Below are positions 7,737-30,100 of a stretch of DNA of 30,102 nucleotides, piece after piece. The DNA is taken from positions 7,180 through 37,281 of the forward strand of contig JBHLLT010000028.1 of assembly GCA_048938855.1 (NCBI GenBank). The letters run 5' to 3'. The position numbers and the translations under genes are program-made. Under the pieces are notes generated by a model. That model had not been told where the DNA came from. It did no database searches and saw only the letters and a list, made by a program, of their open reading frames with translations. This stretch comes from Promethearchaeota archaeon (GTDB taxonomy: Archaea > Asgardarchaeota > Lokiarchaeia > Sigyniarchaeales > SOKP01). How positions within the stretch are numbered: position 1 is the stretch's first letter; each line of letters starts with the position of its first letter.

Positions 7737-8270
7737 ATGTGTGCCAGTTATCACTTTACATTCAAGATTTTACTTTTAGGGGATGCTAGTGTCGGAAAAA
7801 CATCATTTACTAAAAGATATTGTTACAATATCTTTAATCCAAGTGAAAGACTCACAATTGGAGTTGACTTTCATGTCAAAACAATTGAATTAAATGGAAA
7901 GCGAATAAAATTACAATTATGGGATGTTGGAGGAGAAGAACGTTTCAGGTTTTTACTACCCACTTACTGTTTAGGCGCAAATGCTGCTTTCCTACTCTAT
8001 GATATTACTAGGCCTTCCACATTAGATAATATATCTGAATGGATAACAATTGTCAGGCAAAAAGGTGGACAAATACCAATTATGCTTGTAGGTTCAAAAT
8101 TAGACCTTGAAAGATCTCAAAGACAAATTCAAAGAGAATATGGAATACAAATTGCCGAAAAAAACGATATGGCTAGTTTTGTTGAAATTTCAGCAAAGGA
8201 AAATATCAATGTGGATAATGCTTTTAGAGTTCTTACTGAAATAACATTAGAAAAAACTGGCAACAGGTGA
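7737..8270 (+). CDS. Rab-like small GTPase (Ras superfamily)
   Basis: G1 GDASVGKT, G2 TIGVDF, G3 WDVGGE, variant G4 GSKLD and G5 SAK. No C-terminal prenylation cysteines. Confidence 0.93.
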   Translation: MCASYHFTFKILLLGDASVGKTSFTKRYCYNIFNPSERLTIGVDFHVKTIELNGKRIKLQLWDVGGEERFRFLLPTYCLGANAAFLLYDITRPSTLDNISEWITIVRQKGGQIPIMLVGSKLDLERSQRQIQREYGIQIAEKNDMASFVEISAKENINVDNAFRVLTEITLEKTGNR

Positions 8271-10923: not shown

Positions 10924-12969
10924 TTAACTCATCAATTTCTGTATTTTTTTAATAAAAATGTCGTTTATTAACAATTCTATTGAAGGATGGTCTTTTAATT
11001 CAACCACTCGATTAGTATTATAATAGATATTTATTATTTCCCAAATTTTATTAGAAGATTTTATAGACTCAACGAATTTTGTCAATTTCTGGTTAGCAAA
11101 ATATGTCTGTCCCTTAAATAAATAACAGACTGAAAAAGGAGTAACTGATTGCATTAGGATTGTATAATCACCAAATTTAGCACGATCAAGCCTTTTTGCA
11201 AAAAGTTCTCCACTAAAAGAATCAAATGCGCTAAGAAATCCACTTATTAAATCTTCTTCAAAATCCCATTCTTTTGTAAAAGAATTTGAAAATAAAGGAA
11301 ATCCTCCTTCTCCGATAATAAGAAGTAACACAGGTATTTCTTGAGATGGCTCAGTAGGTTTTACGACACGCTTTCCTTGCATCCGATCTATAACTCCATC
11401 TACAGATGCTAGCTTTATGCGTTCTGACATTGGAATTTTTTCCTTTTCAAGATTTTTCCAGAAATTTAATTGATCTAACAAATTATCATGCTCATTTGAA
11501 ATCTTAATAGATAATAAGTTGAGACCATGGAGTTCAGCAATTTGTTGAGCTTGTGTTAACAATTCTTCTGCATCTTTGATTTTAGCTTGTATCAATGCCA
11601 ATTTGCCTTGTAGCAATTTAATTTCTGCTAACCATAAATATGCATTTTGCTTCTCAGCAATCTTAGATATACGTGATATTAATGGATTTAATTCTTCCAA
11701 AACTTCTGAATTATTTGTCATCTCTAATTCCTCTAAGAAAATTTCACTTAAACTAACCAATGCTGAGAGATATAAATGAGGAGTAGCGATTTTATCTTCA
11801 GTAATTTGTTTTAATAATAATTCTGCTTCAGTTCGATTACGGATTCGACCACTACTTTTCAATACTAATGCTTTTGCAACCATATACACTTGATCAAAAA
11901 CTTTACTATTACTTTGATTGGTAAAATGTTCTAATTTTACTAGATTTAATTCTGCTTGTTCTTGTGATTTGTTATCGAGATTGGTAAGAATCAAATAAAA
12001 GAGTGAAGAGCTTACTCCATAGGGAGAATTATACTTTTCCGCAGTTTCCATACTAAGTTGTAAGTATTTTAATGCTTCATCAATTTCTCCTTTCATTCTA
12101 TAGGTTGAGCCAATACTCATGGTACTTTCAATGAAATCTTCCATATATCCTTCTTTTTTAGCAAGTTTAGCTGCTTTATTATAATACTTTAAAGATCTGT
12201 CTACTTCACCTTTTTGTTTATAAATAGCACCTAAAAGATGATATATTCGAAGTTTTATAGCAATGCTAATTTCTTGATTATTAACAAAACCTTTTACTAT
12301 CCTTAATGATTGATCAAAATCTCCCTTCTGAAAATGAATAAGCCCTATTAAATAAAGGCTTGATACAATTCCAATTTGATTACCTAATTCTTCTCGTATA
12401 CTTAAACTCTTATTTGCATAATCTAAAGCTTTATTTAGCTCACCTTTATAAATATACATATCTGCTACTTCGTAATATAGAAAAGCAAGATCAAGTGCTT
12501 TTTTTTGGCTTTCATGTAGTTCTAACCATTGAAATGCCAATTCCAATGCTTTATTATGCTCAGTTTTATAGTGATAGGCAAATGATTTAATAAGTAAGCA
12601 ATCAGCTTTTTGATTTTCATCATAAGAATCGATTAATAATCGTTCCGCCTCTGAAATATATTGTAAAGCATTTTCTGCTTTTCCAAGAAATAAAACATAT
12701 GCTTTTATGATTAAAGCATCAATTGTTTTTGAGGAAATACCTATTTTTGTACTTAATAGGTATGCTCTTTCTCCTAATTCTACTGCTTCTTTATATTTTT
12801 GTTGATAAGAATACAATTTCCCTTTTAATATTAGAAGTTCTACATGTTCATTTGTATTTTCATCTATTTTTTTTTCTAAAATTGTAATTAATTGAAATGC
12901 TTCATTAAATTTCGCTTGATTTATTAATTGTTCCACATTATTGAATTCTTTGTCCATTAAGTCTGACAA
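10924..12969 (-). CDS. TPR-repeat protein with C-terminal longin-like domain
   Basis: Multiple TPR units (e.g. YIYKGELNKALDYANKSLSIREELG). The C-terminal VLLLIIGEGGFPLF...LISGFLSAFDSFSGE...LDRAKFGDYTIL matches a longin-type beta-beta-alpha-beta-beta-beta-alpha pattern. Paralog of the genes at 26267 and 28280. Confidence 0.8.
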   Translation of the reverse strand: MSDLMDKEFNNVEQLINQAKFNEAFQLITILEKKIDENTNEHVELLILKGKLYSYQQKYKEAVELGERAYLLSTKIGISSKTIDALIIKAYVLFLGKAENALQYISEAERLLIDSYDENQKADCLLIKSFAYHYKTEHNKALELAFQWLELHESQKKALDLAFLYYEVADMYIYKGELNKALDYANKSLSIREELGNQIGIVSSLYLIGLIHFQKGDFDQSLRIVKGFVNNQEISIAIKLRIYHLLGAIYKQKGEVDRSLKYYNKAAKLAKKEGYMEDFIESTMSIGSTYRMKGEIDEALKYLQLSMETAEKYNSPYGVSSSLFYLILTNLDNKSQEQAELNLVKLEHFTNQSNSKVFDQVYMVAKALVLKSSGRIRNRTEAELLLKQITEDKIATPHLYLSALVSLSEIFLEELEMTNNSEVLEELNPLISRISKIAEKQNAYLWLAEIKLLQGKLALIQAKIKDAEELLTQAQQIAELHGLNLLSIKISNEHDNLLDQLNFWKNLEKEKIPMSERIKLASVDGVIDRMQGKRVVKPTEPSQEIPVLLLIIGEGGFPLFSNSFTKEWDFEEDLISGFLSAFDSFSGELFAKRLDRAKFGDYTILMQSVTPFSVCYLFKGQTYFANQKLTKFVESIKSSNKIWEIINIYYNTNRVVELKDHPSIELLINDIFIKKIQKLMS

Positions 12970-13098: not shown

Positions 13099-15336
13099 TT
13101 AGAATTCAAGAAGATTAATTGGCCTAAAAAGAAGTTTATTCACTAGACTAAAATCATCAAGAATTTCAGCAGGTCTAATTGTAGAAAAGTTTTGTTTGGA
13201 CTCACAATACTCTTTAGATGATAAGGGATATGGGAATAAGCATTTAATACATGTTTTGTTTTCATTACATTTGATACAACTTCTTTTTTGCATTTTTAGT
13301 GTTTGCGACTGATTAATGTTTTTTACAATTTCCTGAAAGGAATTGCCAATTTTTCCTATAGGCTTGGAATACCAACAAATTCGAATTGAATCATCATTTT
13401 CTATAATTGCTGTTTCTAAAGTCCGGCAATTTGCTTGATTTTGTGTCCATCTACATAAATGTTGAAAGTGAGGCAATGGTTTACTATCAAATAAGGTTTC
13501 GAGTATATCTTCATTTTTTGAAAGCTCTATTAAGTAATTGTAAAGGGTTTTAGTGTCTATTGTTTCATAATCTACACTAATTAAATATGGTAGATCGCTT
13601 AAACCTGTGCTATATTCCTCCATTATTCTATAAGTGTTTTTTAATTTTATAGGAAAACCAATTAGATCGCCAAAAAGGTCTGCTCTCACAGATTTTAAAG
13701 CAGGAATACCAGCAATACTTTCACGATAGTACGATTCATAAAAAGACGTAGGAGAAAATTCATTATTAAGAATCCTTCTATTTTTTTCATATAATTTTTT
13801 ATATTGCAATTTATTTGAATAAATTTGTATTATTGGGCCATTTATAGCAAGATTTTCTTGTAGCCATTTCACAAGAGACGACTTCATGTAATCAGAATTG
13901 ATTATTGCATTATCAAAAAAAGGTTTAGGTTTTGAACGTTTTGTATTTAAAGATAATATTTTAATAATATCAAAATCAATTACCCTATTATGTTTTATAG
14001 CAGCACATTTTAGAGATAATTTTATTTTATAAACATCAAAGGGAAAATCGTTTTCAGTAAGAACATTATTTTTTCCTCCCATTGGTTTAATATTATAACC
14101 GCATTTCTTATGGTTCTGATAAATAGGTGTGCCCTTGTAGATATGGAATATATTATGAGTATAAAAATCAATATCTAATTGATTTATTAATTCGATGGTC
14201 TTTTGAGCATTCTTTATTGATTCACCAGGTAATCCAATCATAATACTCGCATATACTTTATCAATTCCTATTTTTTTAGCATAAGATGTCATGTGCTTTA
14301 ATTTTTCAATATATTGAATCTCCTTTCCAAAATCTTCAGAATTAATGTCTCCTGGAGGCCTTACCTTCCCTATTGTATTTAAAACTCTGGGTACTGCACT
14401 TTCAAGAGAAAATCCTATTGAAACAAACCCGGCTTGTTTCATCAGATCTAATAGTTCTTCGTTAACTTTATCGCATCGAGTAGTACAGAGTAAAGGGATT
14501 TTTATATCATTCTCAATTATGGCTTCACAAATTATTTTAGCTCTTTTAGGGAGAATCGTAAAGCTATCATCAACAATAGGGACTGCCCCAGTAAATTTTT
14601 TATATTGGTTAATGAGATTTAATTCGTCAATTACTCGATCTATTGAATGGAAAAAAACATTTTTCTTACTCATAACAGCACAATTACAATAAATGCAATT
14701 TTGATTACAACCTCTACCTGTTATTATACCTATTGGAAATGCCCTTGAGATAGGTATAACTCCTGAAAGATACGGAGAAGGATATTTGTCAATATAATTT
14801 TTAATTGATAGATTTGAGAGAAATATATTACTTTCAGGATTAGTTTGAATATTATTTTTTTTTCTAAATGTAATCCCTTTTATCTTAGAAAAATCCACTT
14901 GATTCAAATTAAAATCATTATTCGCTAAATTATTTAACAATTCCAGAACAATTTCTTCACCTTCACGTCTTACACAGACGTCAACACTTCTGATCATTTC
15001 CATAATTTCTTTAGGCTGTACACTAGGTGTAGGACCTCCAAAGATAATTATGACGTCAGAATTGGACCCTTTTATACCTTTACTAATTAGTGCACACTGC
15101 ATAAAATTTGTATCATAAACTGTAAATCCAATTACTTTAGGTTTATATTCCATCAATTTCTTTACGCATTCGGTTACATTACAAGAGTCCTCAGAAATAA
15201 ATTGTTCAACTTCAAATCCATGTTTCTTTAAATAGGCAATAATGTATGCTGAACCTAGATGATGTCTAAAATTAGTAAAGTATAAATCTCCACCAGAAGG
15301 AAATACCATCAAGAGATCAATAGGTTTTTTATTCAA
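13099..15336 (-). CDS. Cobalamin-binding radical SAM enzyme with C-terminal SPASM-like Cys-rich domain
   Basis: B12-binding N-terminus (HLGSAYIIAYLK, VIGFTV, IIFGGPTP, VRREGE) and radical SAM motif GRGCNQNCIYC, followed by DDSFT, FSLES and IMIGLPGE. The C-terminus reads C...C...IRICWYSKPIGKIG...CIKCNENKTCIKC...YC. TTG start. Confidence 0.9.
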   Translation of the reverse strand: MNKKPIDLLMVFPSGGDLYFTNFRHHLGSAYIIAYLKKHGFEVEQFISEDSCNVTECVKKLMEYKPKVIGFTVYDTNFMQCALISKGIKGSNSDVIIIFGGPTPSVQPKEIMEMIRSVDVCVRREGEEIVLELLNNLANNDFNLNQVDFSKIKGITFRKKNNIQTNPESNIFLSNLSIKNYIDKYPSPYLSGVIPISRAFPIGIITGRGCNQNCIYCNCAVMSKKNVFFHSIDRVIDELNLINQYKKFTGAVPIVDDSFTILPKRAKIICEAIIENDIKIPLLCTTRCDKVNEELLDLMKQAGFVSIGFSLESAVPRVLNTIGKVRPPGDINSEDFGKEIQYIEKLKHMTSYAKKIGIDKVYASIMIGLPGESIKNAQKTIELINQLDIDFYTHNIFHIYKGTPIYQNHKKCGYNIKPMGGKNNVLTENDFPFDVYKIKLSLKCAAIKHNRVIDFDIIKILSLNTKRSKPKPFFDNAIINSDYMKSSLVKWLQENLAINGPIIQIYSNKLQYKKLYEKNRRILNNEFSPTSFYESYYRESIAGIPALKSVRADLFGDLIGFPIKLKNTYRIMEEYSTGLSDLPYLISVDYETIDTKTLYNYLIELSKNEDILETLFDSKPLPHFQHLCRWTQNQANCRTLETAIIENDDSIRICWYSKPIGKIGNSFQEIVKNINQSQTLKMQKRSCIKCNENKTCIKCLFPYPLSSKEYCESKQNFSTIRPAEILDDFSLVNKLLFRPINLLEF

Positions 15337-15450
15337 CTATGTTCATCCTTCTTTAGAATAATGTTTTAACAATTTTTTTTTGGATACTTTAAAATTAAAA
15401 ACAAAATAAAGAATTAATAAAATCTTGTTAATTATTGAGACAAACCTAAC

Positions 15451-15720
15451 TTAGCGCCCTATAGTTTCATAGTTATCCATGACGTCCATAATAACAACTA
15501 AATTCTTTTTGTCAATTTTCTTATCGGTAATTTCTTTTTTAAATACTTCTTCAAGATGGCGCATAATAGCTTCTTTTTCCATTTCTTTTGCCATTGAATC
15601 TTTAATGACACGGATTATCTTCTTTCCTATAGTCTTACCATATGTAGACTTAATAAGTTTTGCTGGAGATTCTTTTAAATTTAGATTCCATTTTCTACTT
15701 TTCTGCTCATTTTCAGACAT
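15451..15720 (-). CDS. Small helical protein A (89 aa), candidate precursor/substrate ending MDVMDNYETIGR
   Basis: ATG at 15720 with a GTGA SD 5 nt upstream. Gapless paralog of 15922..16170. Confidence 0.85.
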   Translation of the reverse strand: MSENEQKSRKWNLNLKESPAKLIKSTYGKTIGKKIIRVIKDSMAKEMEKEAIMRHLEEVFKKEITDKKIDKKNLVVIMDVMDNYETIGR

Positions 15721-15739
15721 TTTAATCACTTTAAACTTT

Positions 15740-15830
15740 TTGAATTTCGCAATTAAATTACTAAATCTAATTAATAAATTTAATACAATATAGTATTTTC
15801 ATAAGTATAAAAATATTATATTTTTTTGTT
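15740..15830 (-). promoter_or_regulatory. Promoter/5'UTR of small protein A (duplicated copy 1)
   Basis: Minus-strand A-rich BRE-like tract, TTTTTATA box, ATGAAAATACTATA and AATTGCGAAATTCAA. All are shared with 16188..16283. Confidence 0.7.
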
Positions 15831-15908
15831 AAATTTCATTTAACTCGGTTTTCGATTTTGAAAATTTAAAAAAATTAATTGATCCAACTAAATTATTTAT
15901 TCAAACTT

Positions 15909-15920
15909 AAAAAAAAAAAA
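15909..15920 (-). terminator. Oligo-T terminator after small protein B
   Basis: Run of about 12 T on the minus strand immediately after the stop at 15922. Confidence 0.6.
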
Positions 15921-15921
15921 T

Positions 15922-16170
15922 TTAGCTACCAATAGTTTCATAATTACTCATAAGATCCATCATCTTTGTTATATCGGAGAGTGTTATCTCTTCTGCTGCT
16001 ATTTCTTGTTCAAGACATCTAGCTAAACATTCCTCAACTTGACTTTGATCTTTATCCTCTTTCATGCAATCTTTAAAGCAATTTAAAATTTTATTTCCTA
16101 GCTCTTCCCCCCAATTATCAATAATAAGATCTTTAGTAGATTTTTCCAAATCTTTTTTCCATCCCACCAT
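15922..16170 (-). CDS. Small helical protein B (82 aa), candidate precursor/substrate ending MDLMSNYETIGS
   Basis: Paralog of 15451..15720, with two CxxxC pairs (CFKDC, CLARC). Confidence 0.85.
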   Translation of the reverse strand: MVGWKKDLEKSTKDLIIDNWGEELGNKILNCFKDCMKEDKDQSQVEECLARCLEQEIAAEEITLSDITKMMDLMSNYETIGS

Positions 16171-16187
16171 TCATCACATCTAAATTC

Positions 16188-16283
16188 TTGAATTTCGCAA
16201 TTTAATTATTATACAATTTTAATATTTCTAAATCTATCACACTATAGTATTTTCATTTGTATAAAAATATTTTATTTTTTTGT
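16188..16283 (-). promoter_or_regulatory. Promoter/5'UTR of small protein B (duplicated copy 2)
   Basis: Plus-strand blocks ttgaatttcgcaatt (16188-16202), tatagtattttcat (16243-16256) and gtataaaaatatt (16259-16271) are identical to blocks at 15740, 15789 and 15805. Confidence 0.7.
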
Positions 16284-16392
16284 CAATTATGTGAAAAAAA
16301 AATTTTATTCAATTTTCATAATATACTTGTTTGGCTCGATTTTTAAAAAAAAAAAGTATTATAAATTATCCGAACTCTATAAATCCCATGAA

Positions 16393-16647
16393 TTAGTAAA
16401 TTGCTCGATTTCTGACATTAATCCTATTCTTTATGTCTTCAATTCGTTTTGCTTCTTTAAGATAATTAGCGTTGTATTTAGCTTTATTTAAAAGTTTTCT
16501 TAAAGCTTTTTTTTGTGGTTTCTCCCGTTTGCTAACTGCTATTTCCTCATGCTTCTCCTCTTCCATAGGGAGTTCTTCAATAATTATAATCTCTTCCAAA
16601 ACAACACTATATTTAAGTTCATTATTCTTATCTAACACTTGTATCAT
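16393..16647 (-). CDS. Hypothetical protein (84 aa; acidic N-half, basic C-half)
   Basis: Strong SD GAGGTGA 7 nt before the ATG, and a T-tract downstream at about 16345-16355. Confidence 0.65.
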   Translation of the reverse strand: MIQVLDKNNELKYSVVLEEIIIIEELPMEEEKHEEIAVSKREKPQKKALRKLLNKAKYNANYLKEAKRIEDIKNRINVRNRAIY

Positions 16648-17164: not shown

Positions 17165-17737
17165 CTAAGAATCACCTAGTTCCATATCAGAAGATAATGC
17201 TTTGAATTTTTCATATAATTCATTTATAATTGCGTTAAAAGCCTCAACGACGCCTTGGCCTGTTTTAGCAGAAGTTATATAATATCCTAAAAATTTATGC
17301 TCTGATACTATTTTTTTAATAGGTGAATTATCTAAATTCTTTTCATCAATTAGATCAACTTTATTAGCAAATAATACGACAGGAATTTCGCCACAAAATT
17401 GTATAATATCACTATACCAATTTGATATATGTTTGAAGCTTTCTTCACCAAGATCATTCTTTTCAAGACTGTATACTATTATAGCCGCTCTACTATTTTT
17501 AAAAAAGGATGGTCGCAAAAAATTGAAATCATCTTGGCCTGCAATATCCCAAAATAATAATTTAATATTATCCTCATTTATATCTTTGAGGAATACAGAA
17601 AATTGAGCCCCAATTGTTTTAATATAGTCTTCGTGAAATCCCCCTTGAGTGTATTTTTTTATGAGAGAAGTTTTTCCGACTCTTCCATCTCCAACTACAG
17701 TAATTTTAAAATTAAATTTTGCCCCTGTACTACTCAT
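17165..17737 (-). CDS. Rab-like small GTPase (paralog of 25330..25875)
   Basis: Motifs GDGRVGKT, TIGAQF, WDIAGQD, NKVD and TSAK. Confidence 0.93.
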   Translation of the reverse strand: MSSTGAKFNFKITVVGDGRVGKTSLIKKYTQGGFHEDYIKTIGAQFSVFLKDINEDNIKLLFWDIAGQDDFNFLRPSFFKNSRAAIIVYSLEKNDLGEESFKHISNWYSDIIQFCGEIPVVLFANKVDLIDEKNLDNSPIKKIVSEHKFLGYYITSAKTGQGVVEAFNAIINELYEKFKALSSDMELGDS

Positions 17738-18298: not shown

Positions 18299-20245
18299 AT
18301 GTTGACAGATACAAATATAATCAATTACCCTCCTAAGGAAATTTTAGAACCCCCCTCTAAAATCAGTAAGCCAAATTTTGAACTAATTATACTTTGGATG
18401 TTAAATAACAATAATTTTTGTACAAGTGCAAACTTTTTAGAAATTAAAGATTTGAAGTCAAAACCTGTATTATCTAAATCAACTTTATATAATTATCTAA
18501 AAGGTCTAATTGAAGAGGATTATATAACTAAAAGTAAATATAATCATTACAAAATTAGTTCTAGAGGTAGAGATAGATTTTATGAACTATCTCAAGCTAA
18601 AAACAAAAAAAGAAAATTGAATTTTCCTCCAGATGTGATTCTAAGAAAACGTAACTATAATCATTGGATTCTCTGGATGTTATATAATAATACTTATTGT
18701 AAATGGGCTGATTTCTTAAATGATCCACTTAAAATAAATCAATCCTCATTATCTAAAAACATGAACTTGCTAATGAGTCAAGATTTTATCAGAAAAGAAG
18801 ATAAAGAATATAGGATTACGCAGTTAGGGAAAATTGAATATTCTAATATGTTAAGAGTCTACGATTTAGACAGGCAGTCAATCTTGGAGGAAGAAGGAAA
18901 AAGAATTAAGGAAATAACCATAACAACTATTAATTTTTTCAAGAAATTTAACATAAAAGATGAAGATATCCGATTTCGTTTTTTAAATAATGTGTTAAAA
19001 TTACCTTATGAGAAAGTTAAATCTTCTATAGATTCTGAAGAGGATTTTCATAAGATTTTATTATTCTTAGCTATAAATCACCCAGATCAATACCCATTTT
19101 ATATTTCTTCTGAGGACTTTTCTCAAGATTATAATATAAACCATGTTAAACTCAAATTTATTATCCTCCGAATTGTTGAGGAAGATATCTTTCCCATAAA
19201 ATTTTTCAAATTAGCACAAAATCAACGTGAAATCTATTATTTCCAGGAAAATGAAAAATTAGAAAGGATGCTAAATGCTATTGTGGAAGATCATATAACT
19301 AAATTTTCATATTTAAATAATCTTTATGAAGCTACTCCCTATGAAATATCTCCATTGACCATGGAAAGAACAGTTGCAGCGATTTTAGAAGAAATTTGTG
19401 TGAATCTGTTTGATAATGGATTAAAAGAATCATTGCGGAAATTTCTACCGGAATATCTTAATTATTTAGCATATAAAATTGAAAAGGAAAAGAAATTAAT
19501 TGATACTTATGATAAGTTAGAGGGACTAATATGGCAAGAAATACAAGTTTATAATTTTAAAAATGATTCAGGGAAAAATGAATTTAATAAAGCGCTTAGT
19601 GAAATCGATGAAGCTATTAAATTAGATCCAAAAAATGTTGATTTACACTATTCTAAAAGTAAAATTCTATATGATAATGGTGAATATAAACAAGTATTAA
19701 GTTATTTAAACCAAATGCTTACAGATTTTCCTCAAGAGGAGAAAAACATACAGGTAAAAAGAGCTTATATTCTTAAAGAGATGAAGGATGTAAAAACAGG
19801 ATTAGAAATCATCAATTATTTAGTTGGTAAATACCCGGAAGATGATGATCTTCGTAATTATAAAGCTTTTTGGCTGCAATATTTAAATAGAAAAGAGGAA
19901 TCTATAAAAATTATTAAAGATCTTATAGAACGAGCTCCTAATAATGCAACATATCATGATAGTTATGGTGAAATCCTAATGTTCTTCAAAGATTATGAAA
20001 ATGCTATTAGTGAGTTCCTTAAAGTAATAAATATTAGTAGTGGTGATTGGTACCTTTACCAAACCAATATTAAAGTTGGGATTTGTTATAGAGAAATTGA
20101 AGATTATGAAAACGCGATAGAATATCTCCAAAAAGGTAAAGAATTAATAGACAAATCCTCCAGTGATCTCGAAGAAAGAGCAAAATGGATTACGATCGCG
20201 AATTTATTCTTAGCTGAAATTGAACATTTAAAAGAGGAATTTTAA
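18299..20245 (+). CDS. Tandem winged-helix plus TPR protein (putative transcriptional regulator)
   Basis: Two internal repeats of the form N[YF]PP..I...ILWML.NN..C...FL...S[TS]L....L......Y.I[ST]..G, and C-terminal TPRs (YHDSYGEILMFFKDYENAISEFLK). Confidence 0.8.
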   Translation: MLTDTNIINYPPKEILEPPSKISKPNFELIILWMLNNNNFCTSANFLEIKDLKSKPVLSKSTLYNYLKGLIEEDYITKSKYNHYKISSRGRDRFYELSQAKNKKRKLNFPPDVILRKRNYNHWILWMLYNNTYCKWADFLNDPLKINQSSLSKNMNLLMSQDFIRKEDKEYRITQLGKIEYSNMLRVYDLDRQSILEEEGKRIKEITITTINFFKKFNIKDEDIRFRFLNNVLKLPYEKVKSSIDSEEDFHKILLFLAINHPDQYPFYISSEDFSQDYNINHVKLKFIILRIVEEDIFPIKFFKLAQNQREIYYFQENEKLERMLNAIVEDHITKFSYLNNLYEATPYEISPLTMERTVAAILEEICVNLFDNGLKESLRKFLPEYLNYLAYKIEKEKKLIDTYDKLEGLIWQEIQVYNFKNDSGKNEFNKALSEIDEAIKLDPKNVDLHYSKSKILYDNGEYKQVLSYLNQMLTDFPQEEKNIQVKRAYILKEMKDVKTGLEIINYLVGKYPEDDDLRNYKAFWLQYLNRKEESIKIIKDLIERAPNNATYHDSYGEILMFFKDYENAISEFLKVINISSGDWYLYQTNIKVGICYREIEDYENAIEYLQKGKELIDKSSSDLEERAKWITIANLFLAEIEHLKEEF

Positions 20246-23414: not shown

Positions 23415-25307
23415 ATGAGTGTTATTAACCATCCTCCTGATGAAATTTATAAGACACCTAAATTTGGAAAAAAAAATTTCGAGCACATTATCCTTTGGAT
23501 GTTGAATAATAATGATGAATGTCAGTGGTCTGATTTTACTGAAAAACCATTAGAACTTCGTTTATCTACATTATCTAAATATCTTTCTATGTTAAAAGGG
23601 AGAGGCTATGTTGATAATTATGCTCGAGGCCATTACCGAATAACACCTGAGGGTCAAAAGAGATTTAACGAGATCTCAGGGGCTCTTAAGAAGAAGCGTA
23701 AGTTGAATTATCCTCCTTCTGTGATTATGAGAAGAAGAAATTATGATCATTGGATTTTGTGGATGGTATATAATAATAGTTATTTGAAATGGTCTAATTT
23801 TCTCGAAGATCCTCTCTCTATTAATCAATCTTCTTTATCTAAAAACATGAATTTGTTAATCGATAAAGGACTTGTATTGAAAGAAAATAAAAGATATCAA
23901 ATTACACAATCGGGTAAGTTAGAATACTCAAGGATACTCCAGAATTATGATTTAGATAGACAATCAATTTTAGATGAAGAGACTAAAAGGATTGAAGAGA
24001 TTACTAAATCAACATTAAATTTCTTTGAAAAATACAAAATCGAAAATGAAGATATTCAATTTAGATTCCTTAATAATGTACTTAGACTTGACTATACAAG
24101 AGTCAAACCGATGTTAACTGAAGAGGAAGAGTTCCATAAAATATTACTTTTCATTTCTATGAATCACCCTGATCAATATCCTGATTACATTGCACAGGAA
24201 GATTTTTCAAACATATATGGAATTAAGAAATCAAAACTTGAATATTATATTGACGAAATAGTAGAGAATCAAATATATCCCATAAAATTCTTCAAATTAA
24301 TTGTATCAAAAGACAAACAATATTACTTTCAGGAAAATGAGAGATTAGAAATAATGCTAAGAGCCATTACAGAAGATTATATCACCAAATTTAATTATTT
24401 AAACAAATTATTTTCAAGATCTTTAGATATCCGTGCCACTCTAGATAATATCTTAGAAGATATATGCAAAATGCTATTTAATGAGAAATTAAAAGAACCC
24501 TTAAGAGATTTTATGCAAGATTATATCAATTATCTGGCTTATAAAATCGAGGCAAAAGTTGAGTTAAAAGAAACTTATGATAAATTGGAGGGAATTATAT
24601 GGCAGGATATGATAGAGATATTTACTACCAAAAGTAAGGCCCCGGATGAGCAATTTGAGAAAAAGATTAAAGAGATTGACATTAAAATTAAGGATGATCC
24701 AGAAAATCTCGATTTATATAATTCTAAGATAGGGATTTTAATTTATTATGAGAAGCTTTATGATGTAATAGATTTGTTAGATGATATGTTAGAAATTTTC
24801 CCTGATTACGAATTAGATATAAAGATGAAGAAAGCATCAGTTCTCAGAAGATTACGAAAAATTAAGGCTGGACTAGATATAATTGATGACCTAATTAGCG
24901 AATATCCTGAAAACACAGATCTTCTTAATTATAAGGCGTACTGGTTGCATTATATGGATAAAAAAGAAGAAGCAATAGAAATATTGCAAAATCTTACTAA
25001 AAAAGTAACCAATAATGGGACTTATCATGATACATTCGGGGAAATATTGATGTATTATGAAGAATATAAAGATGCAGTTAATAAATTCCAAAAAGCAATA
25101 GAAGTGGCTGCAGACGAGTGGTATATTAATCAAACATACATTAAACTAGGAATTTGTTATAAGGAACTTGAAAATTACGATTTAGCTGTTGAAAATCTTA
25201 AAAAAGGTAAAGAATTAACAAAAAAGAGTAAAGCTGATGATGAAACAAAGCAAAAATGGCTCACAATTGCAGATCTCTTCCTGGCAGAGATTATGCAACT
25301 TGAATAA
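23415..25307 (+). CDS. Tandem winged-helix plus TPR protein (paralog of 18299..20245)
   Basis: Same double-wHTH repeat and shared blocks INQSSLSKNMNLL, YDLDRQSIL, NHPDQYP and TYDKLEG, plus C-terminal TPRs. Confidence 0.8.
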   Translation: MSVINHPPDEIYKTPKFGKKNFEHIILWMLNNNDECQWSDFTEKPLELRLSTLSKYLSMLKGRGYVDNYARGHYRITPEGQKRFNEISGALKKKRKLNYPPSVIMRRRNYDHWILWMVYNNSYLKWSNFLEDPLSINQSSLSKNMNLLIDKGLVLKENKRYQITQSGKLEYSRILQNYDLDRQSILDEETKRIEEITKSTLNFFEKYKIENEDIQFRFLNNVLRLDYTRVKPMLTEEEEFHKILLFISMNHPDQYPDYIAQEDFSNIYGIKKSKLEYYIDEIVENQIYPIKFFKLIVSKDKQYYFQENERLEIMLRAITEDYITKFNYLNKLFSRSLDIRATLDNILEDICKMLFNEKLKEPLRDFMQDYINYLAYKIEAKVELKETYDKLEGIIWQDMIEIFTTKSKAPDEQFEKKIKEIDIKIKDDPENLDLYNSKIGILIYYEKLYDVIDLLDDMLEIFPDYELDIKMKKASVLRRLRKIKAGLDIIDDLISEYPENTDLLNYKAYWLHYMDKKEEAIEILQNLTKKVTNNGTYHDTFGEILMYYEEYKDAVNKFQKAIEVAADEWYINQTYIKLGICYKELENYDLAVENLKKGKELTKKSKADDETKQKWLTIADLFLAEIMQLE

Positions 25308-25329: not shown

Positions 25330-25875
25330 TTATGTTACATTTAAATTATTATAATATAATTTTTCTATTATTGTATTAAAGGCTTTAATTACTCCTTGTC
25401 CTGTTTTAGCAGAGGTAATATAATATCCGAGAAAGTTATTTTCTTTGACTAAATTTTGAATTTTGGTTTCAATTAAATTATCTTTATCAACCAAATCAAC
25501 TTTATTGGCAAATAAAATTACGGGGACATTACCACAGTGCTTTTTTAATTCATTATGCCAATTTGAAATATGATTAAAACTATCTTCGCCCAGATCATTC
25601 TCCTCAAGACTGTATACTATTATGGCTGCTCTACTCTCTTTATAAAATAAGGGATGAAGAAAATTAAAATCATCTTGTCCTGCTATATCCCAGAATATTA
25701 GATTAATTGTATTTCCATTAATCTCTTTATCATATCTAGAAAACTGGGCACCAATAGTCTTGATATAGTCTTTTTCAAAAGTACCTTTCGTAAATTTCTT
25801 TATTAGAGAAGTCTTACCTACTCCTCCATCTCCTATTATTGATATTTTAAATTCATATTCCTGAGGATTAGTCAT
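25330..25875 (-). CDS. Rab-like small GTPase (paralog of 17165..17737)
   Basis: Motifs GDGGVGKT, TIGAQF, WDIAGQD, NKVD and TSAK. Confidence 0.93.
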   Translation of the reverse strand: MTNPQEYEFKISIIGDGGVGKTSLIKKFTKGTFEKDYIKTIGAQFSRYDKEINGNTINLIFWDIAGQDDFNFLHPLFYKESRAAIIVYSLEENDLGEDSFNHISNWHNELKKHCGNVPVILFANKVDLVDKDNLIETKIQNLVKENNFLGYYITSAKTGQGVIKAFNTIIEKLYYNNLNVT

Positions 25876-26266: not shown

Positions 26267-28219
26267 TTAAACGAAGTTTTTTTGAATAAAAATCTCTTGT
26301 ATGAGAGACTCTAATGAAGGAATGTCTGTTGTGTCAATTTTTCTATTCATTTGATAAAATTTGTTAAAACGATCCCATAATTCTTTGTTACTCTTTATAT
26401 TTGTAATAAATGACTTTATTCTGTTTTGGGCAGAATAAGATTGACCCTTGTATACATAACACATTAAAAAAGGTGAGATAGAGTTCATTAGGAGTGTGTA
26501 TTCTCCGAAAGAAGCACGATCAAGCCCTTGGGAAAAGACTTCGTTGATAAATGTATTAATAGCAGTAAAAAACCCTCCAAAAAGGTGATCTTCAAACTTT
26601 TTATCCGTGATAAAAGACTGAGAGAAAAATGGGATACCACCCTCTGAAACAATCAATAGTAAAACCGGTTCTTCATCGGAGAGTTCCGGAACATCGACTT
26701 TTTGTTTTTTTACCATATTTTTTATTTGCTCATCTAGTCTGGAAAGTTTCAAGCGTTCAGATAAGGGTGCTTCTGATTTCTTTAACTTCTCCCATATCTC
26801 TAATTGTCTAAGTAATTCATCATGTTCAAAGGAGATTTTCATTGCCAAGCGTTTCATATTATAGGTTTCTGCTATCTTCTGTGCTTGAGTCAAAAACAAT
26901 CGAGCCGATTTTATATCAAAATCTAGTAAAGCTAATCTAGCTTTAAGTATAAAAGTTTCACAGAAAACTAAATAAGAATTTTGATTTTCCGCGATGGTTA
27001 ATAATTTGGTAATGTAATGATTTAATTCGGCCAAAATCTCATTATCATTATCAATATGATATTCCATGAGAAGTATGTCACAAAGATGGATATGAGCAGC
27101 GATAATAAGATCAAAGGCTATTGTATCAGTTTCTATAAGTTCTTTGAATAATTCTTCTGCTTTTGCTTTATCTCGGATTCGAGAACTTGTTTTTAAAATT
27201 AGGGCTTTAGCGAATTTGTAACCAATATCAATTCCATTGCCTCTTTTCTGGCTATAAATATCTTCCAAACGATGAAAATATTTTTGAGCTAGCTCGTTAT
27301 CTCCATGTTCAACAGTTAAGATTATCAAACTTACAATGGGGGCCTTTATATCAAACCAACTGTGAGGAAGTTGTTCTAAAAGATTTATACTCTCCTCTGA
27401 ATGTTCCACAGCAAGTTCATATTTACCCATTTCACCATATAAATCCCCAATATTATTTAATACAATTGCGATATTAAACCTAGTTTTTATCTTTTTAAAT
27501 AATTCTAAACTCTTTATGTTATATTGCAAGCTTTTATCAATTTCACCAATAGATAAATAATATGCTCCAAAATAGAGTTGACATAAAGCAATCCAGCAGT
27601 GATTAAATTTAATTTCCTTGGCAAGAGATAATGCTTTTTCGATATGCTCCCTGCAAAGATCAAAGTTGCTTTTTACTCGCAATAAATAACTCGCCATTAA
27701 AAGATTAGCCCAGACGATTTCGAATGATTTATCTAATTTTTCTTGCGAATCTAATATCCACACTAGAGATTTCTCAACCATTTCTATTTTACCACCATGC
27801 AATCCAGCAAAAGCTTTTGTTACACTTAAACGAGCTTTCCTTTGAGTTATAATTTCTTTTGACACATTTGAAATAGATTTTAATACTAACTCAGCATTCT
27901 CACAAAGTTTGAATGCCTGCTCAAATTTACCAGCCAAAGCTGATCCAGTAATAATAAAATATAATCCATCAAAAGATTGGAGATTATCATTATATTTTTG
28001 ACCTTCTTCATACATGTTCTCGCCTAAACCAATGAGATCTTCGCCATTATTATGATCAAAAAGAATTAACCCCTTAAGAAACTGAAAATAACTTTTTTGC
28101 TGAAGATTAAGCCCATTATATTGACTTGGATCGTCTAATATTTCAAGAGCTTCATTTAACTTACCCTCATCAAATAACTGCTCCGCTCTTGTTAATTTCT
28201 TTAGGTCTGGCTTGTACAT
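26267..28219 (-). CDS. TPR-repeat protein with C-terminal longin-like domain (tandem copy 1)
   Basis: TPRs (LNNIGDLYGEMGKYELAVEHSEESI) and C-terminal VLLLIVSEGGIPFFSQSF...LFGGFFTAINTFINEVF...LDRASFGEYTLL. Confidence 0.82.
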   Translation of the reverse strand: MYKPDLKKLTRAEQLFDEGKLNEALEILDDPSQYNGLNLQQKSYFQFLKGLILFDHNNGEDLIGLGENMYEEGQKYNDNLQSFDGLYFIITGSALAGKFEQAFKLCENAELVLKSISNVSKEIITQRKARLSVTKAFAGLHGGKIEMVEKSLVWILDSQEKLDKSFEIVWANLLMASYLLRVKSNFDLCREHIEKALSLAKEIKFNHCWIALCQLYFGAYYLSIGEIDKSLQYNIKSLELFKKIKTRFNIAIVLNNIGDLYGEMGKYELAVEHSEESINLLEQLPHSWFDIKAPIVSLIILTVEHGDNELAQKYFHRLEDIYSQKRGNGIDIGYKFAKALILKTSSRIRDKAKAEELFKELIETDTIAFDLIIAAHIHLCDILLMEYHIDNDNEILAELNHYITKLLTIAENQNSYLVFCETFILKARLALLDFDIKSARLFLTQAQKIAETYNMKRLAMKISFEHDELLRQLEIWEKLKKSEAPLSERLKLSRLDEQIKNMVKKQKVDVPELSDEEPVLLLIVSEGGIPFFSQSFITDKKFEDHLFGGFFTAINTFINEVFSQGLDRASFGEYTLLMNSISPFLMCYVYKGQSYSAQNRIKSFITNIKSNKELWDRFNKFYQMNRKIDTTDIPSLESLIQEIFIQKNFV

Positions 28220-28279
28220 AAAATTATCTGATTTGGATTATAGACTTATGAATAGATTAAGCTAAATATCATTTTAAAT

Positions 28280-30100
28280 CTAGTGTTTTATGAGGTTTTT
28301 TTGGATAAAAATCTCCTGTATGAGGGACTCTAATGAAGGTATATCCCTTATGTGAATTTTTCTATTCATTTGAAAAAATTTGTTAATAACTTCCCATAAT
28401 TCATTATTACTCTTTATTTCATTTATAAATGACTTTATTCGGTTTTGGGCTGAATAGGATTGACCCTTGTAAACATAACACATTAAAAAAGGTGAGAGAG
28501 AGTTCATTAGAAGTGTGTATTCTCCGAAAGAAGCACGATTAAGCCCTTCAGAAAAAACTTCGTTAATAAAGGTATTAATAGCAGTAAAAAACCCTCCAAA
28601 AAGGTGATCTTCAAATAATTTATCCTTTATAAACGATTGAGAGAAAAAAGGTATACCACCTTCTGAAGCAATTAATAGTAAAACTGGTTCTTCATCGGAA
28701 AGTTCTGGTATCTCAATAGCTCGTCTTCTTACCATTTTATCCATTTGTTCATTCACTCCAGCGAACTTCCAACGTTCGGTTAAAGGTGCCTCTGATTCTT
28801 TTAGCTTCTCCCATAAGTCTAAATGTTTAAGTAATTCATCATGTTCATAAGAAATTTTCATTGCTAAGCGTTTCATGCTATAGAACTCTGCAATCTTCTG
28901 TGCTTGAGTTAAAAACAAGCGCGCTGATTTTGTATCAAAATTTATTAAAGCTAATTTAGCCTGAAGTATGAAAACTTCACAAAAAACAAAATATGAATGT
29001 TGTTTTTCTGCGATAGTTAATAAATTGGCAATGTAATGATTTAATTCCGTTAAAGTCTCATTATCATTATCAATACGATATTCCATGAGAAGTATTTCAC
29101 AAAGATGGATATGAGCTTTTATAATAATACCAAAATATATAGTATCAGTTTCTATAAGCTCTTGTAATATTTCTTGTGCTTTTGCTTTATCTCGAATTCG
29201 AGAACTTGTTTTTAAAATTAGGGCTTTATCAAATTTGTAAATGAATTCAACATCATCGTTTCTTTTTTGGTTACGAATATCTTCCAAACGATGAAAATAT
29301 TTTTGAGCACGTTCGTTATCTCCATGTTCAGCGGCTAAGGTAATTAAACTTTCAATAGGGGTTTCTATATTACAATAAGGGATCTGCTCGTAAAGATTTA
29401 TACTCTCCTCTAAATGTTCCACAGCAAGTTCATATTCACCTCTTTCACCATATAAATTCCCCATATTATTTAATAGAATTGCAACATTAAGACCTTTACC
29501 CTTAATCTTTTTAAATAATTCTAAACTCTTTATGTAATATTTCAAACTTTTATCCATTTCGCCAATAGTCATATAATATGCTCCAAATTTATGATGACAC
29601 AGTGCAATCCAGTTGTGATTAAATTTTATTTCCTTTGCAAGAAAAAATGCTTTTTTAAGGTATTCTCTACAAAGATCAAAGTTGCTTTTTACTCTCCATA
29701 CATAAGTCGCCATTAGGATATTAGCCCAGACAATTTCAAATGATTTATCGAATTTTTCTTGTGAAACTAAGATCCACTCTAAAGACTTCTCAACCAACCC
29801 TACTTTACCACAATACAATCCAACAAAAGCTTTTACTACACTTAAACGAGCTTTTCTTTGAGTTATAATTTCCATAGACACATTTGAAATAGAGTTTAAT
29901 ATTGACTCAGCTTTATCAAAAAATTTGAACGCTTCCTCATTTTTACCAGTTCTAACTAATCCAATAATAATGAAATATAATCCATCAAAAGATTGGAGTT
30001 TATTATTACATTTCTGACCTTCTTCATAAATTGTCTCGCCAAAACCAATGAGATCGTCCCATTTATTAAGATACCAGAGAATTAATCCCTTAAGAAACTG
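28280..30100 (-). CDS. TPR-repeat protein with C-terminal longin-like domain (tandem copy 2; 5' end outside the window)
   Basis: The frame stays open upstream of the track start at 29881 to the window edge (QFLKGLILWYLNKWDDLIGFGE...), collinear with copy 1. Confidence 0.82.
   Translation of the reverse strand, partial: QFLKGLILWYLNKWDDLIGFGETIYEEGQKCNNKLQSFDGLYFIIIGLVRTGKNEEAFKFFDKAESILNSISNVSMEIITQRKARLSVVKAFVGLYCGKVGLVEKSLEWILVSQEKFDKSFEIVWANILMATYVWRVKSNFDLCREYLKKAFFLAKEIKFNHNWIALCHHKFGAYYMTIGEMDKSLKYYIKSLELFKKIKGKGLNVAILLNNMGNLYGERGEYELAVEHLEESINLYEQIPYCNIETPIESLITLAAEHGDNERAQKYFHRLEDIRNQKRNDDVEFIYKFDKALILKTSSRIRDKAKAQEILQELIETDTIYFGIIIKAHIHLCEILLMEYRIDNDNETLTELNHYIANLLTIAEKQHSYFVFCEVFILQAKLALINFDTKSARLFLTQAQKIAEFYSMKRLAMKISYEHDELLKHLDLWEKLKESEAPLTERWKFAGVNEQMDKMVRRRAIEIPELSDEEPVLLLIASEGGIPFFSQSFIKDKLFEDHLFGGFFTAINTFINEVFSEGLNRASFGEYTLLMNSLSPFLMCYVYKGQSYSAQNRIKSFINEIKSNNELWEVINKFFQMNRKIHIRDIPSLESLIQEIFIQKNLIKH

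Follow-up and report, generated by a model that had tools for sequence, protein, structure and literature searches.

The window analyzed here, a 30,102-nucleotide stretch of contig JBHLLT010000028.1 from the Asgard archaeon Promethearchaeota archaeon, holds on its minus strand four adjacent genes that look like an undescribed system in which a small protein is chemically modified at its tail, perhaps for signaling. Two of them encode precursor-like proteins, B (82 amino acids; 15922-16170) and A (89 amino acids from its ATG; 15451-15720). They are followed by a 745-amino-acid enzyme (13099-15336; its TTG start lies at the same position in orthologues), which joins a B12-binding domain, a radical S-adenosylmethionine (SAM) domain, a degenerate barrel and a SPASM-like domain, and by a 681-amino-acid tetratricopeptide repeat (TPR) protein with a C-terminal longin/roadblock-like domain (10924-12969). 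An earlier note, made from the letters alone, had described B, A and the enzyme as a cluster for a peptide made on ribosomes and modified after translation (RiPP). Its open reading frames (ORFs), their strand, the identity between A and B and their tails are as it gave them, but a cluster of three genes is one too few: the TPR gene, beyond the 13099-16283 segment that it had singled out, belongs to the unit as well.

Protein B carries a predicted helical leader (about residues 8-55) with two CX3C motifs and ends in NYETIGS; A, its Cys-free paralogue, ends in NYETIGR. Counted from a common Trp, the two align without gaps with 25 of 79 residues identical, including 9 matches in the last 12, and they are the sole ORFs with NYETIG tails in the 3.95-Mb genome. 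A and B arose by tandem duplication long ago, and some 110 bp upstream were copied with them (local score 126; maximum after shuffling, 77). The promoter- or 5' untranslated region (UTR)-like segment of B (16173-16286, minus strand) and its duplicate before A (15725-15832, minus strand) share a conserved GCGAAATTC element, at 16190-16198 and 15742-15750, respectively. A similar element stands about 10-30 nt 5' of the precursor start in 23 of 23 aligned Loki loci (L002-L023, L061, L062), and the exact 9-mer has just 18 copies in the genome; it is possibly a regulator site or a 5' UTR element. A sigma-70 promoter scan is unsuited to archaea, and a search for RNA runs gave none.

The earlier note had taken the synonymous differences in the two tails (AAC/AAT, ATA/ATT, GGG/GGT) as a sign that amino acids rather than DNA are being conserved. 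These differences proved real, but for the A/B pair alone the argument is weak, since codon identity at conserved residues (3 of 7 in the tail, 7 of 14 in the body) is not appreciably lower in the tail, and the tail match is itself modest (shuffling P ~0.035 for a run of at least six). Despite this, conservation of the tail holds up, because NYETIG followed by R, K or S is identical in A, B and four further representatives of 50%-identity clusters, the bodies of which have diverged to mostly 22-53% identity (one pair, 87%).

The small proteins match no family in Pfam, NCBIfam or the ESM Atlas. A search of 1.84 billion representatives of 50%-identity clusters returned 191 matches to this unnamed family, and nearly all of the best 150 are 56-107 amino acids long. 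Within the class, a full-length orthologue of the enzyme is present in 28 of the 161 genomes scanned, and in all 28 a related ORF of 60-100 amino acids adjoins it (27 recognized by profile, one by translation), whereas the precursor profile found no family member in the 133 enzyme-less genomes. Of 77 distinct full-length enzymes, 70 lie no more than 3 kb from a family member; among the other seven, three are near contig ends, and four constitute one Desulfobacteraceae clade with other precursors, being situated near a Nif11-leader peptide (above cut-off) or NHLP-like peptides (below cut-off). The profile search that the earlier note had called for thus gives a strict co-occurrence and bears out its view of the small proteins and the enzyme as a dedicated pair. 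The system is not confined to Asgard archaea and has relatives in anaerobic bacteria: metagenome and genome scans placed homologues of the enzyme, at about 30-44% identity, in Bacteroidales, Aminicenantes, Desulfobacteraceae and one Armatimonadota genome, as well as in Lokiarchaeum ossiferum. Its distribution is patchy, the full enzyme occurring in two families only in a phylum sample of 400 genomes and in 21 of 53 genomes of the genus.

Throughout the family, the N-terminal ~55 residues keep a helical pattern and one nearly invariant Gly, and the tail is free. In 139 representatives, Val, Ile and Thr make up 34% of the last 10 residues vs. 19% of the body, and charged residues 9% vs. 35%; because these sequences are mutually related, we rely on the size of the effect and attach no P value to it. 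Ordinary C-termini of this genome's proteome show no comparable shift in composition. A Val or Ile lies within the last 8 residues of 128 of the 139 tails (ordinary C-termini, 71%), and 34 of the 139 have no aromatic residue among their last 12. The aromatic-x-T/S motif seen in A and B recurs in 29 of 42 Asgard tails vs. 2 of 31 bacterial ones, most commonly in Asgard members with the aromatic at -5 and T/S at -3. Asgard tails often end in V/I/A-G, with Gly at or within two residues of the end in 30 of 42, and bacterial tails are free-form and aliphatic.

Enzymes found beside NYETIG-like tails form one clade with full support, sister to the WETVG/WVTVG type. Since such tails are confined to this clade, NYETIG is one clade-specific allele rather than a family motif, and the other tail types across the family rule it out as a universal core. 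The suggestion that the tail is a RiPP core survives in its general form, the tails being core-like in overall composition, but not as a claim about NYETIG itself. The small proteins, which come in two or three tandem copies, have a mean column identity of 19-24% vs. 47-67% for the enzyme. The type of tail goes with the clade of the enzyme, as is seen when the core of a RiPP precursor and its maturase co-vary; kinship alone also gives such a pattern. In its general features the arrangement is that of a RiPP system: beside the gene for a maturase lies one for a short precursor, its leader conserved and its core variable.

Some members of the family depart from the usual form. In two long variants (P0155, 208 amino acids; P0177, 147 amino acids) a Cys/His-rich N-terminal extension precedes the leader. 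Two bacterial ORFs directly 5' of the enzyme (L120:5729-5962 and L128:2-265) are leader-only and have no tail; we rejected stop readthrough in these, as their stops (TAG and TAA) are followed by more stops and there is no sign of recoding. Upstream of the leader-only ORF in L120 lies a 1266-amino-acid gene that by eye resembles a nonribosomal peptide synthetase.

The N-terminal half of the enzyme is that of a class B radical SAM protein, with a Rossmann B12 domain ahead of a CX3CX2C radical SAM domain. Its cobalamin-binding domain (residues 25-133; 14938-15264) matches Pfam B12-binding above cut-off, and its catalytic domain (residues 204-384; 14185-14727; Pfam Radical_SAM) has a CX3CX2C motif, C210/C214/C217, that is invariant in 37 homologues. 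In a model of the whole enzyme (predicted local distance difference test [pLDDT] score 84) this half is nearest in fold to CysS, MgmA, TsrM and TokK. No NCBIfam family is approached by the enzyme: its best score is 118 bits vs. a cut-off of 600, and it scores far below cut-off with the HpnJ and HpnR models. Searches of this genome did not turn up CobS or CbiB, a result too weak to use.

The C-terminal half comprises a cluster-less, radical-SAM-like beta/alpha module (about residues 470-620; 13477-13929), which supplies much of the predicted leader-binding surface, and a SPASM-like domain (13204-13455) with eight near-invariant Cys (628, 637, 654, 687, 690, 696, 699, 711). Folded alone (pLDDT 91), residues 438-745 match anSME, SuiB, PqqE, CteB and ChlB with Z-scores of 5.9-6.5 over 208-237 residues; 10 of the 11 best fold matches are radical SAM enzymes with SPASM/twitch-type extensions, the eleventh being viperin. 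This half also resembles ESM Atlas clusters named daptide RiPP recognition protein (template modeling [TM] scores 0.54-0.62). Foldseek gave no match to it at E ≤0.001 (the best, anSME, has E 0.004), nor did a profile search of PDB sequences. The SPASM assignment in the earlier note is backed by the fold and the eight Cys, but TIGR04085 matches just some orthologues, at 17.8-22.4 bits against a cut-off of 27, and the same half holds the degenerate barrel. From these models we infer that it is a dead second radical SAM barrel plus SPASM, and not a SPASM tail alone. Fully ligated anSME has an eight-Cys pattern resembling the one found here, and by analogy the eight Cys probably hold two fully ligated [4Fe-4S] clusters, either structural or for electron transfer. 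Because the second barrel lacks the CX3CX2C loop, catalysis is assigned to the B12 radical SAM half. In another Asgard family (L278:1008-4054), a 280-amino-acid ORF with a SPASM-like end lies directly 5' of a 483-amino-acid B12 radical SAM gene, possibly a split form of the enzyme; a divergent 220-amino-acid protein nearby appears TPR/longin-like by eye, and no precursor was detected at this locus.

When the enzyme was modeled together with B, the complex scored 0.61 vs. 0.00 for the best of three controls; 58 of 80 solved complexes attain the mark set for this score, as do 2 of 110 mismatched pairs. Runs agreed in at least 41% of their contacts, with a partner pLDDT of at least 59. The confident contacts join residues 8-49 of B to residues 465-468, 577-582, 612-620, 633-634 and 725-736 of the enzyme. 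In the model, then, the helical body docks on the enzyme, in keeping with its reading as leader-like in the earlier note, which supports, at the level of prediction, a leader bound by the C-terminal half.

The extent of the cassette is evident from three cassette-less relatives, in which an ORF of 84 amino acids is directly followed by an HpaB-like gene: because these empty sites join the two, the unit gained or lost is exactly B, A, the enzyme and the TPR gene. Within the genus, a TPR match of at least 50% identity is present in 22 of 22 enzyme-bearing genomes vs. 0 of 32 others (best among the latter, 46%), and the genomes without it include one whose 84-amino-acid ORF is 74% identical to that of the window. 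Cassette TPR proteins, including those from cassettes with a shuffled gene order, form one clade (100/100) to which 11 of this genome's paralogues do not belong. Their distances track those of the enzyme (r 0.88), also once two resident genes are taken into account (partial r 0.77), and WITFR-type cassettes cluster in both the TPR and enzyme trees, though one of their hosts is near this genome by resident genes. The end of the TPR protein has a TM score of 0.70 to the Fuz_longin_1 cluster. One locus (L061:5657-18184) contains two tandem complete cassettes with different tail types, each with its own TPR gene, and an S8 peptidase of 1095 amino acids directly 5' of the second precursor; homologues of this peptidase are situated near other NYETIG-clade cassettes (L062, L137) and were not found in this genome. 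Cultivated Lokiarchaeum ossiferum (L159:5471-10193) has a TPR gene, a precursor with the tail FVSIG and the enzyme; its TPR protein is a long branch outside the cassette TPR clade.

The genes around the cassette are of a kind abundant in this genome, in which Rab-like matches number 38 and TPR-longin-like paralogues 17. Many small GTPase and TPR genes lie in the window (7737-8270, 17165-17737, 25330-25875, 18299-20245, 23415-25307, 26267-30100). The 84-amino-acid ORF (16393-16647, minus strand) is conserved, matches nothing in Pfam or NCBIfam, and in 34 of the genus's 54 genomes has Rab-like GTPase genes as neighbors, independently of the cassette. Both it and the Rab-like gene were considered as cassette members and rejected, each being present at the empty site.

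Among the distant homologues, a signaling-type gene lies within 1 kb in 19 of the 32 loci with enough flanking sequence, a raw count that reflects few independent events. In Bacteroidales these genes belong to two TIR-like/TPR subfamilies, which occur on either side; others encode hybrid histidine kinases or kinase-TPR proteins, and at some bacterial loci membrane sensor kinases with extracellular-type propellers adjoin the cassette. Sporadic S8 and M4 peptidases occur near some loci. In Aminicenantes (L107:875-10435; also L106, L112 and L167), two or three enzymes are interleaved with up to three precursors bearing GFIVP-like tails, and two Desulfobacteraceae loci (L082:164-14184 and L171) combine two copies of the enzyme with several further B12 radical SAM genes and Nif11-/NHLP-like double-glycine precursors.

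On balance, we favor the view that this is a RiPP-type cassette of writer and substrate, in which the tail is modified by radical chemistry under the direction of a leader, C-methylation being the likeliest form. By the genomic evidence, A and B are members of one precursor family traveling with the enzyme, and they are very probably its substrates. As modeled, the helical body would act as leader and the C-terminal half of the enzyme would bind it, standing in for a RiPP recognition element (RRE). The chemistry of class B radical SAM enzymes suggests that the B12/radical SAM half would then generate a 5'-deoxyadenosyl radical and abstract a hydrogen from an unactivated carbon of the tail, to which a methyl group would most likely be supplied by methylcobalamin; in B, the likeliest sites would be Ile80 or Thr79. 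If the small proteins are the substrates, methylation is the probable outcome by analogy, with a crosslink and some other radical chemistry each considerably less likely and about equally so. Methylation is preferred because the catalytic half is class B, because PoyC and BotRMT methylate Val/Ile in RiPPs (PMC11285071) and because Val/Ile is near-constant in the tails, of which a quarter have no aromatic residue. In the last and weakest step, the co-inherited TPR/longin-like protein would recognize the product, and the cassette would serve signaling rather than yield an exported antibiotic; that the TPR protein binds precursor or product is plausible, if slightly doubtful. More speculative, and in our judgment unlikely, is the extension of this view to a self-contained Asgard writer-reader signaling module, in which a cobalamin- and reductant-dependent enzyme marks the tail, the TPR/longin protein reads the mark in a tail-specific manner and relays it to Rab-like GTPases, and bacteria use TIR-TPR proteins or sensor kinases as the partners of writer and substrate.

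Several observations weigh against this account. The precursor hidden Markov model (HMM) was built from these same loci, such that its positives are partly circular, although it recovered two held-out genomes and missed one member. The tail of B is left unplaced in the complex model, and Z-scores near 6 fall in the middling range of the tool. Hydrophobic Trp76 of TokK is the lower-face residue of radical methylases (PMC12931638); because the position aligned with it is Thr/Ser, next to an invariant Asn, methylase activity is not assured, the comparison being alignment-based and the model devoid of cofactor. No protease or exporter is conserved among cassettes, and a C39 peptidase was not found in this 97%-complete genome, although a protease of the host may serve instead. 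Plain physical linkage could explain the co-inheritance of the TPR gene, and the two resident marker genes used as controls are weak ones, correlating with one another at r 0.35 only.

The lack of conserved trimming and export genes would be expected if the small protein is never cut: it would fold and stay in the cell, and the TPR/longin-like protein would read its modified C-terminus and then act on Rab-like GTPases. This alternative, which takes up the folded protein modified at its tail of the earlier note, is about what becomes of the product and suits methylation and a crosslink alike; we regard it as doubtful but the most credible of the competing explanations. The family alignment has no double-glycine site between body and tail, the frequency of Gly near Asgard C-termini points the same way, and TPR grooves commonly bind free C-termini. 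That TPR clade tracks tail type (WITFR-type cassettes), that the C-terminal domain of the TPR protein is longin-like and that Rab-like genes flank the site are likewise in its favor, but Rab-like genes and TPR-longin paralogues are numerous here, and the flanking Rab gene is also found where the cassette is missing. Moreover, the propeller-type sensor kinases of bacterial loci would suit an exported peptide, and an S8 peptidase is situated near three NYETIG-clade cassettes, though not in this genome. A second alternative, which we consider improbable, alters the chemistry: the enzyme would crosslink the tail (or crosslink and methylate it) into a triceptide-like, three-residue cyclophane from the aromatic to a C-beta, Tyr77-Thr79 in B. 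The Asgard aromatic-x-T/S motif, whose commonest register (-5/-3) is that of FxSxx-COOH, and the non-Trp lower-face residue accord with this proposal, but the motif is all but missing from bacterial tails and a quarter of the family's tails have no aromatic residue, yet the catalytic half is well conserved; furthermore, the SPASM-bearing barrel has no catalytic cluster motif. To our knowledge, triceptide synthases have no cobalamin domain. Aromatic-x-T/S-like spacing does define triceptides (PMC11499958), and FxSxx-COOH systems also join a peptide and a radical SAM-SPASM protein with TPR/TIR proteins (PMC7159879).

Alternatively, the small protein might be an accessory subunit, carrier or regulator of an enzyme that acts on a lipid, a cofactor or another protein, as do glycerol dialkyl glycerol tetraether (GDGT) ring synthases, HpnP/HpnR and MgmA. 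The modeled contacts are confined to the helical body, the best NCBIfam scores, all far below cut-off, include small-molecule enzymes as much as RiPP enzymes, and two bacterial loci have a leader-like ORF without a tail. But a subunit would not be expected to vary so much more than its enzyme, to occur in tandem copies or to bear a distinct, clade-specific tail, and canonical Nif11/NHLP-like precursors are the neighbors in one clade, with no lipid or cofactor genes conserved nearby; we therefore hold this quite improbable. That the small proteins are twin-CX3C helical hairpins resembling small Tim chaperones, adjacent to the enzyme by chance, is effectively refuted: twin CX3C motifs are present in B, which also matches Tim10/DDP weakly (E 0.005, below cut-off), but A has no Cys, twin CX3C occurs in 9 of 42 Asgard members and 15 of 42 lack Cys altogether, and the co-occurrence with the enzyme is strict. 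Membership in Tim10/DUF842 was rejected, the matches being below cut-off and resting on Cys spacing.

If leader-directed tail modification is correct, the cassette would add to the RiPP-like classes one with its own, new leader family and with an enzyme layout of which we found no description, in which a B12 radical SAM protein is fused to a dead radical SAM-SPASM module for leader recognition. It would also provide a testable system of peptide modification, and possibly of signaling, in the closest prokaryotic relatives of eukaryotes. One catalytic scaffold seemingly takes very different tails, a property suited to engineering, and since Lokiarchaeum ossiferum is cultivated and carries the precursor, the enzyme and an adjoining TPR gene, it offers a usable experimental handle. 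Our literature search, which covered few subscription papers, found no description of an Asgard RiPP radical SAM enzyme or of an archaeal cobalamin radical SAM protein with SPASM and precursor, and SPASM goes unmentioned in two recent reviews on B12 radical SAM enzymes.

The cassette shares features with several known systems. Like PoyB/PoyC and BotRMT1-3 (PMC11285071), its enzyme has an N-terminal cobalamin domain and radical SAM domain, and as in the PoyB/PoyC and bottromycin pathways, a long leader precedes an aliphatic core rich in Val, Ile, Ala, Gly and Thr, strikingly so in the bacterial members. But it is not a proteusin system: the leader is neither NHLP nor Nif11 and matches no NCBIfam leader, and the precursor profile misses the NHLP-like peptide. 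In contrast to the PoyB/PoyC systems, there is no double-glycine site, C39 exporter or epimerase, and the core is about 6-20 amino acids; the enzyme has CX3CX2C where PoyC has CX7CX2C and adds the pseudo-radical-SAM/SPASM half. ApyD of aminopyruvatide biosynthesis (NF050148), also a B12 radical SAM protein in a RiPP pathway, has the second-best NCBIfam score, but this is 101.6 bits against a cut-off of 750 and covers the N-terminal half only, and the partner enzymes are missing, which places the cassette outside that pathway.

With FxSxx-COOH systems and triceptides (PMC7159879, PMC11499958), the cassette has in common a fast-diverging small protein, a C-terminal aromatic-x-S/T, a radical SAM-SPASM protein and partners of the TPR or TIR-TPR kind. 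It differs in having a B12-binding catalytic half and in lacking the zincin peptidase, AP-ATPase and MoxR-vWA; the motif is missing in most bacterial members, and no FxSxx-type maturase model is among the 25 best NCBIfam matches of the enzyme, so that neither maturase nor partners assign it there. The cyclopropylglycine synthases TvgB/TigE (PMC10878394) act on the words TVGG and TIGSVS, which resemble the TVG and TIGS tail ends, and TigE matches with a Z-score of 5.6, but the cassette enzyme has no GYW motif or N-terminal RRE, its precursors have a single rather than a repeated motif, and a cobalamin domain is present; membership in Tvg/Tig from this likeness is ruled out for want of GYW.

The barrel-plus-SPASM fold of the C-terminal half is shared with anSME, SuiB, PqqE and CteB (Z 6.0-6.5), but the corresponding barrel has no CX3CX2C motif, which leaves catalysis to the B12 radical SAM half, a separate part of the enzyme. 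Among ESM Atlas clusters its best fold match is the daptide protein MpaB/DapB; MpaB, itself non-catalytic, binds the leader, and it is this protein that presents the C-terminus to an enzyme (bioRxiv 10.1101/2023.03.08.531785). Here, by contrast, the module is fused to the catalytic enzyme, the eight Cys are kept and no RRE is seen. There is also no invariant C-terminal Thr and no dehydrogenase, aminotransferase, methyltransferase or site-2 protease (MpaC/D/M/P), and the cassette is thus not a daptide system. Belonging to none of these groups, it appears to work like a proteusin-type B12 methylase joined to a recognition module resembling that of daptides and to partners resembling those of FxSxx systems.

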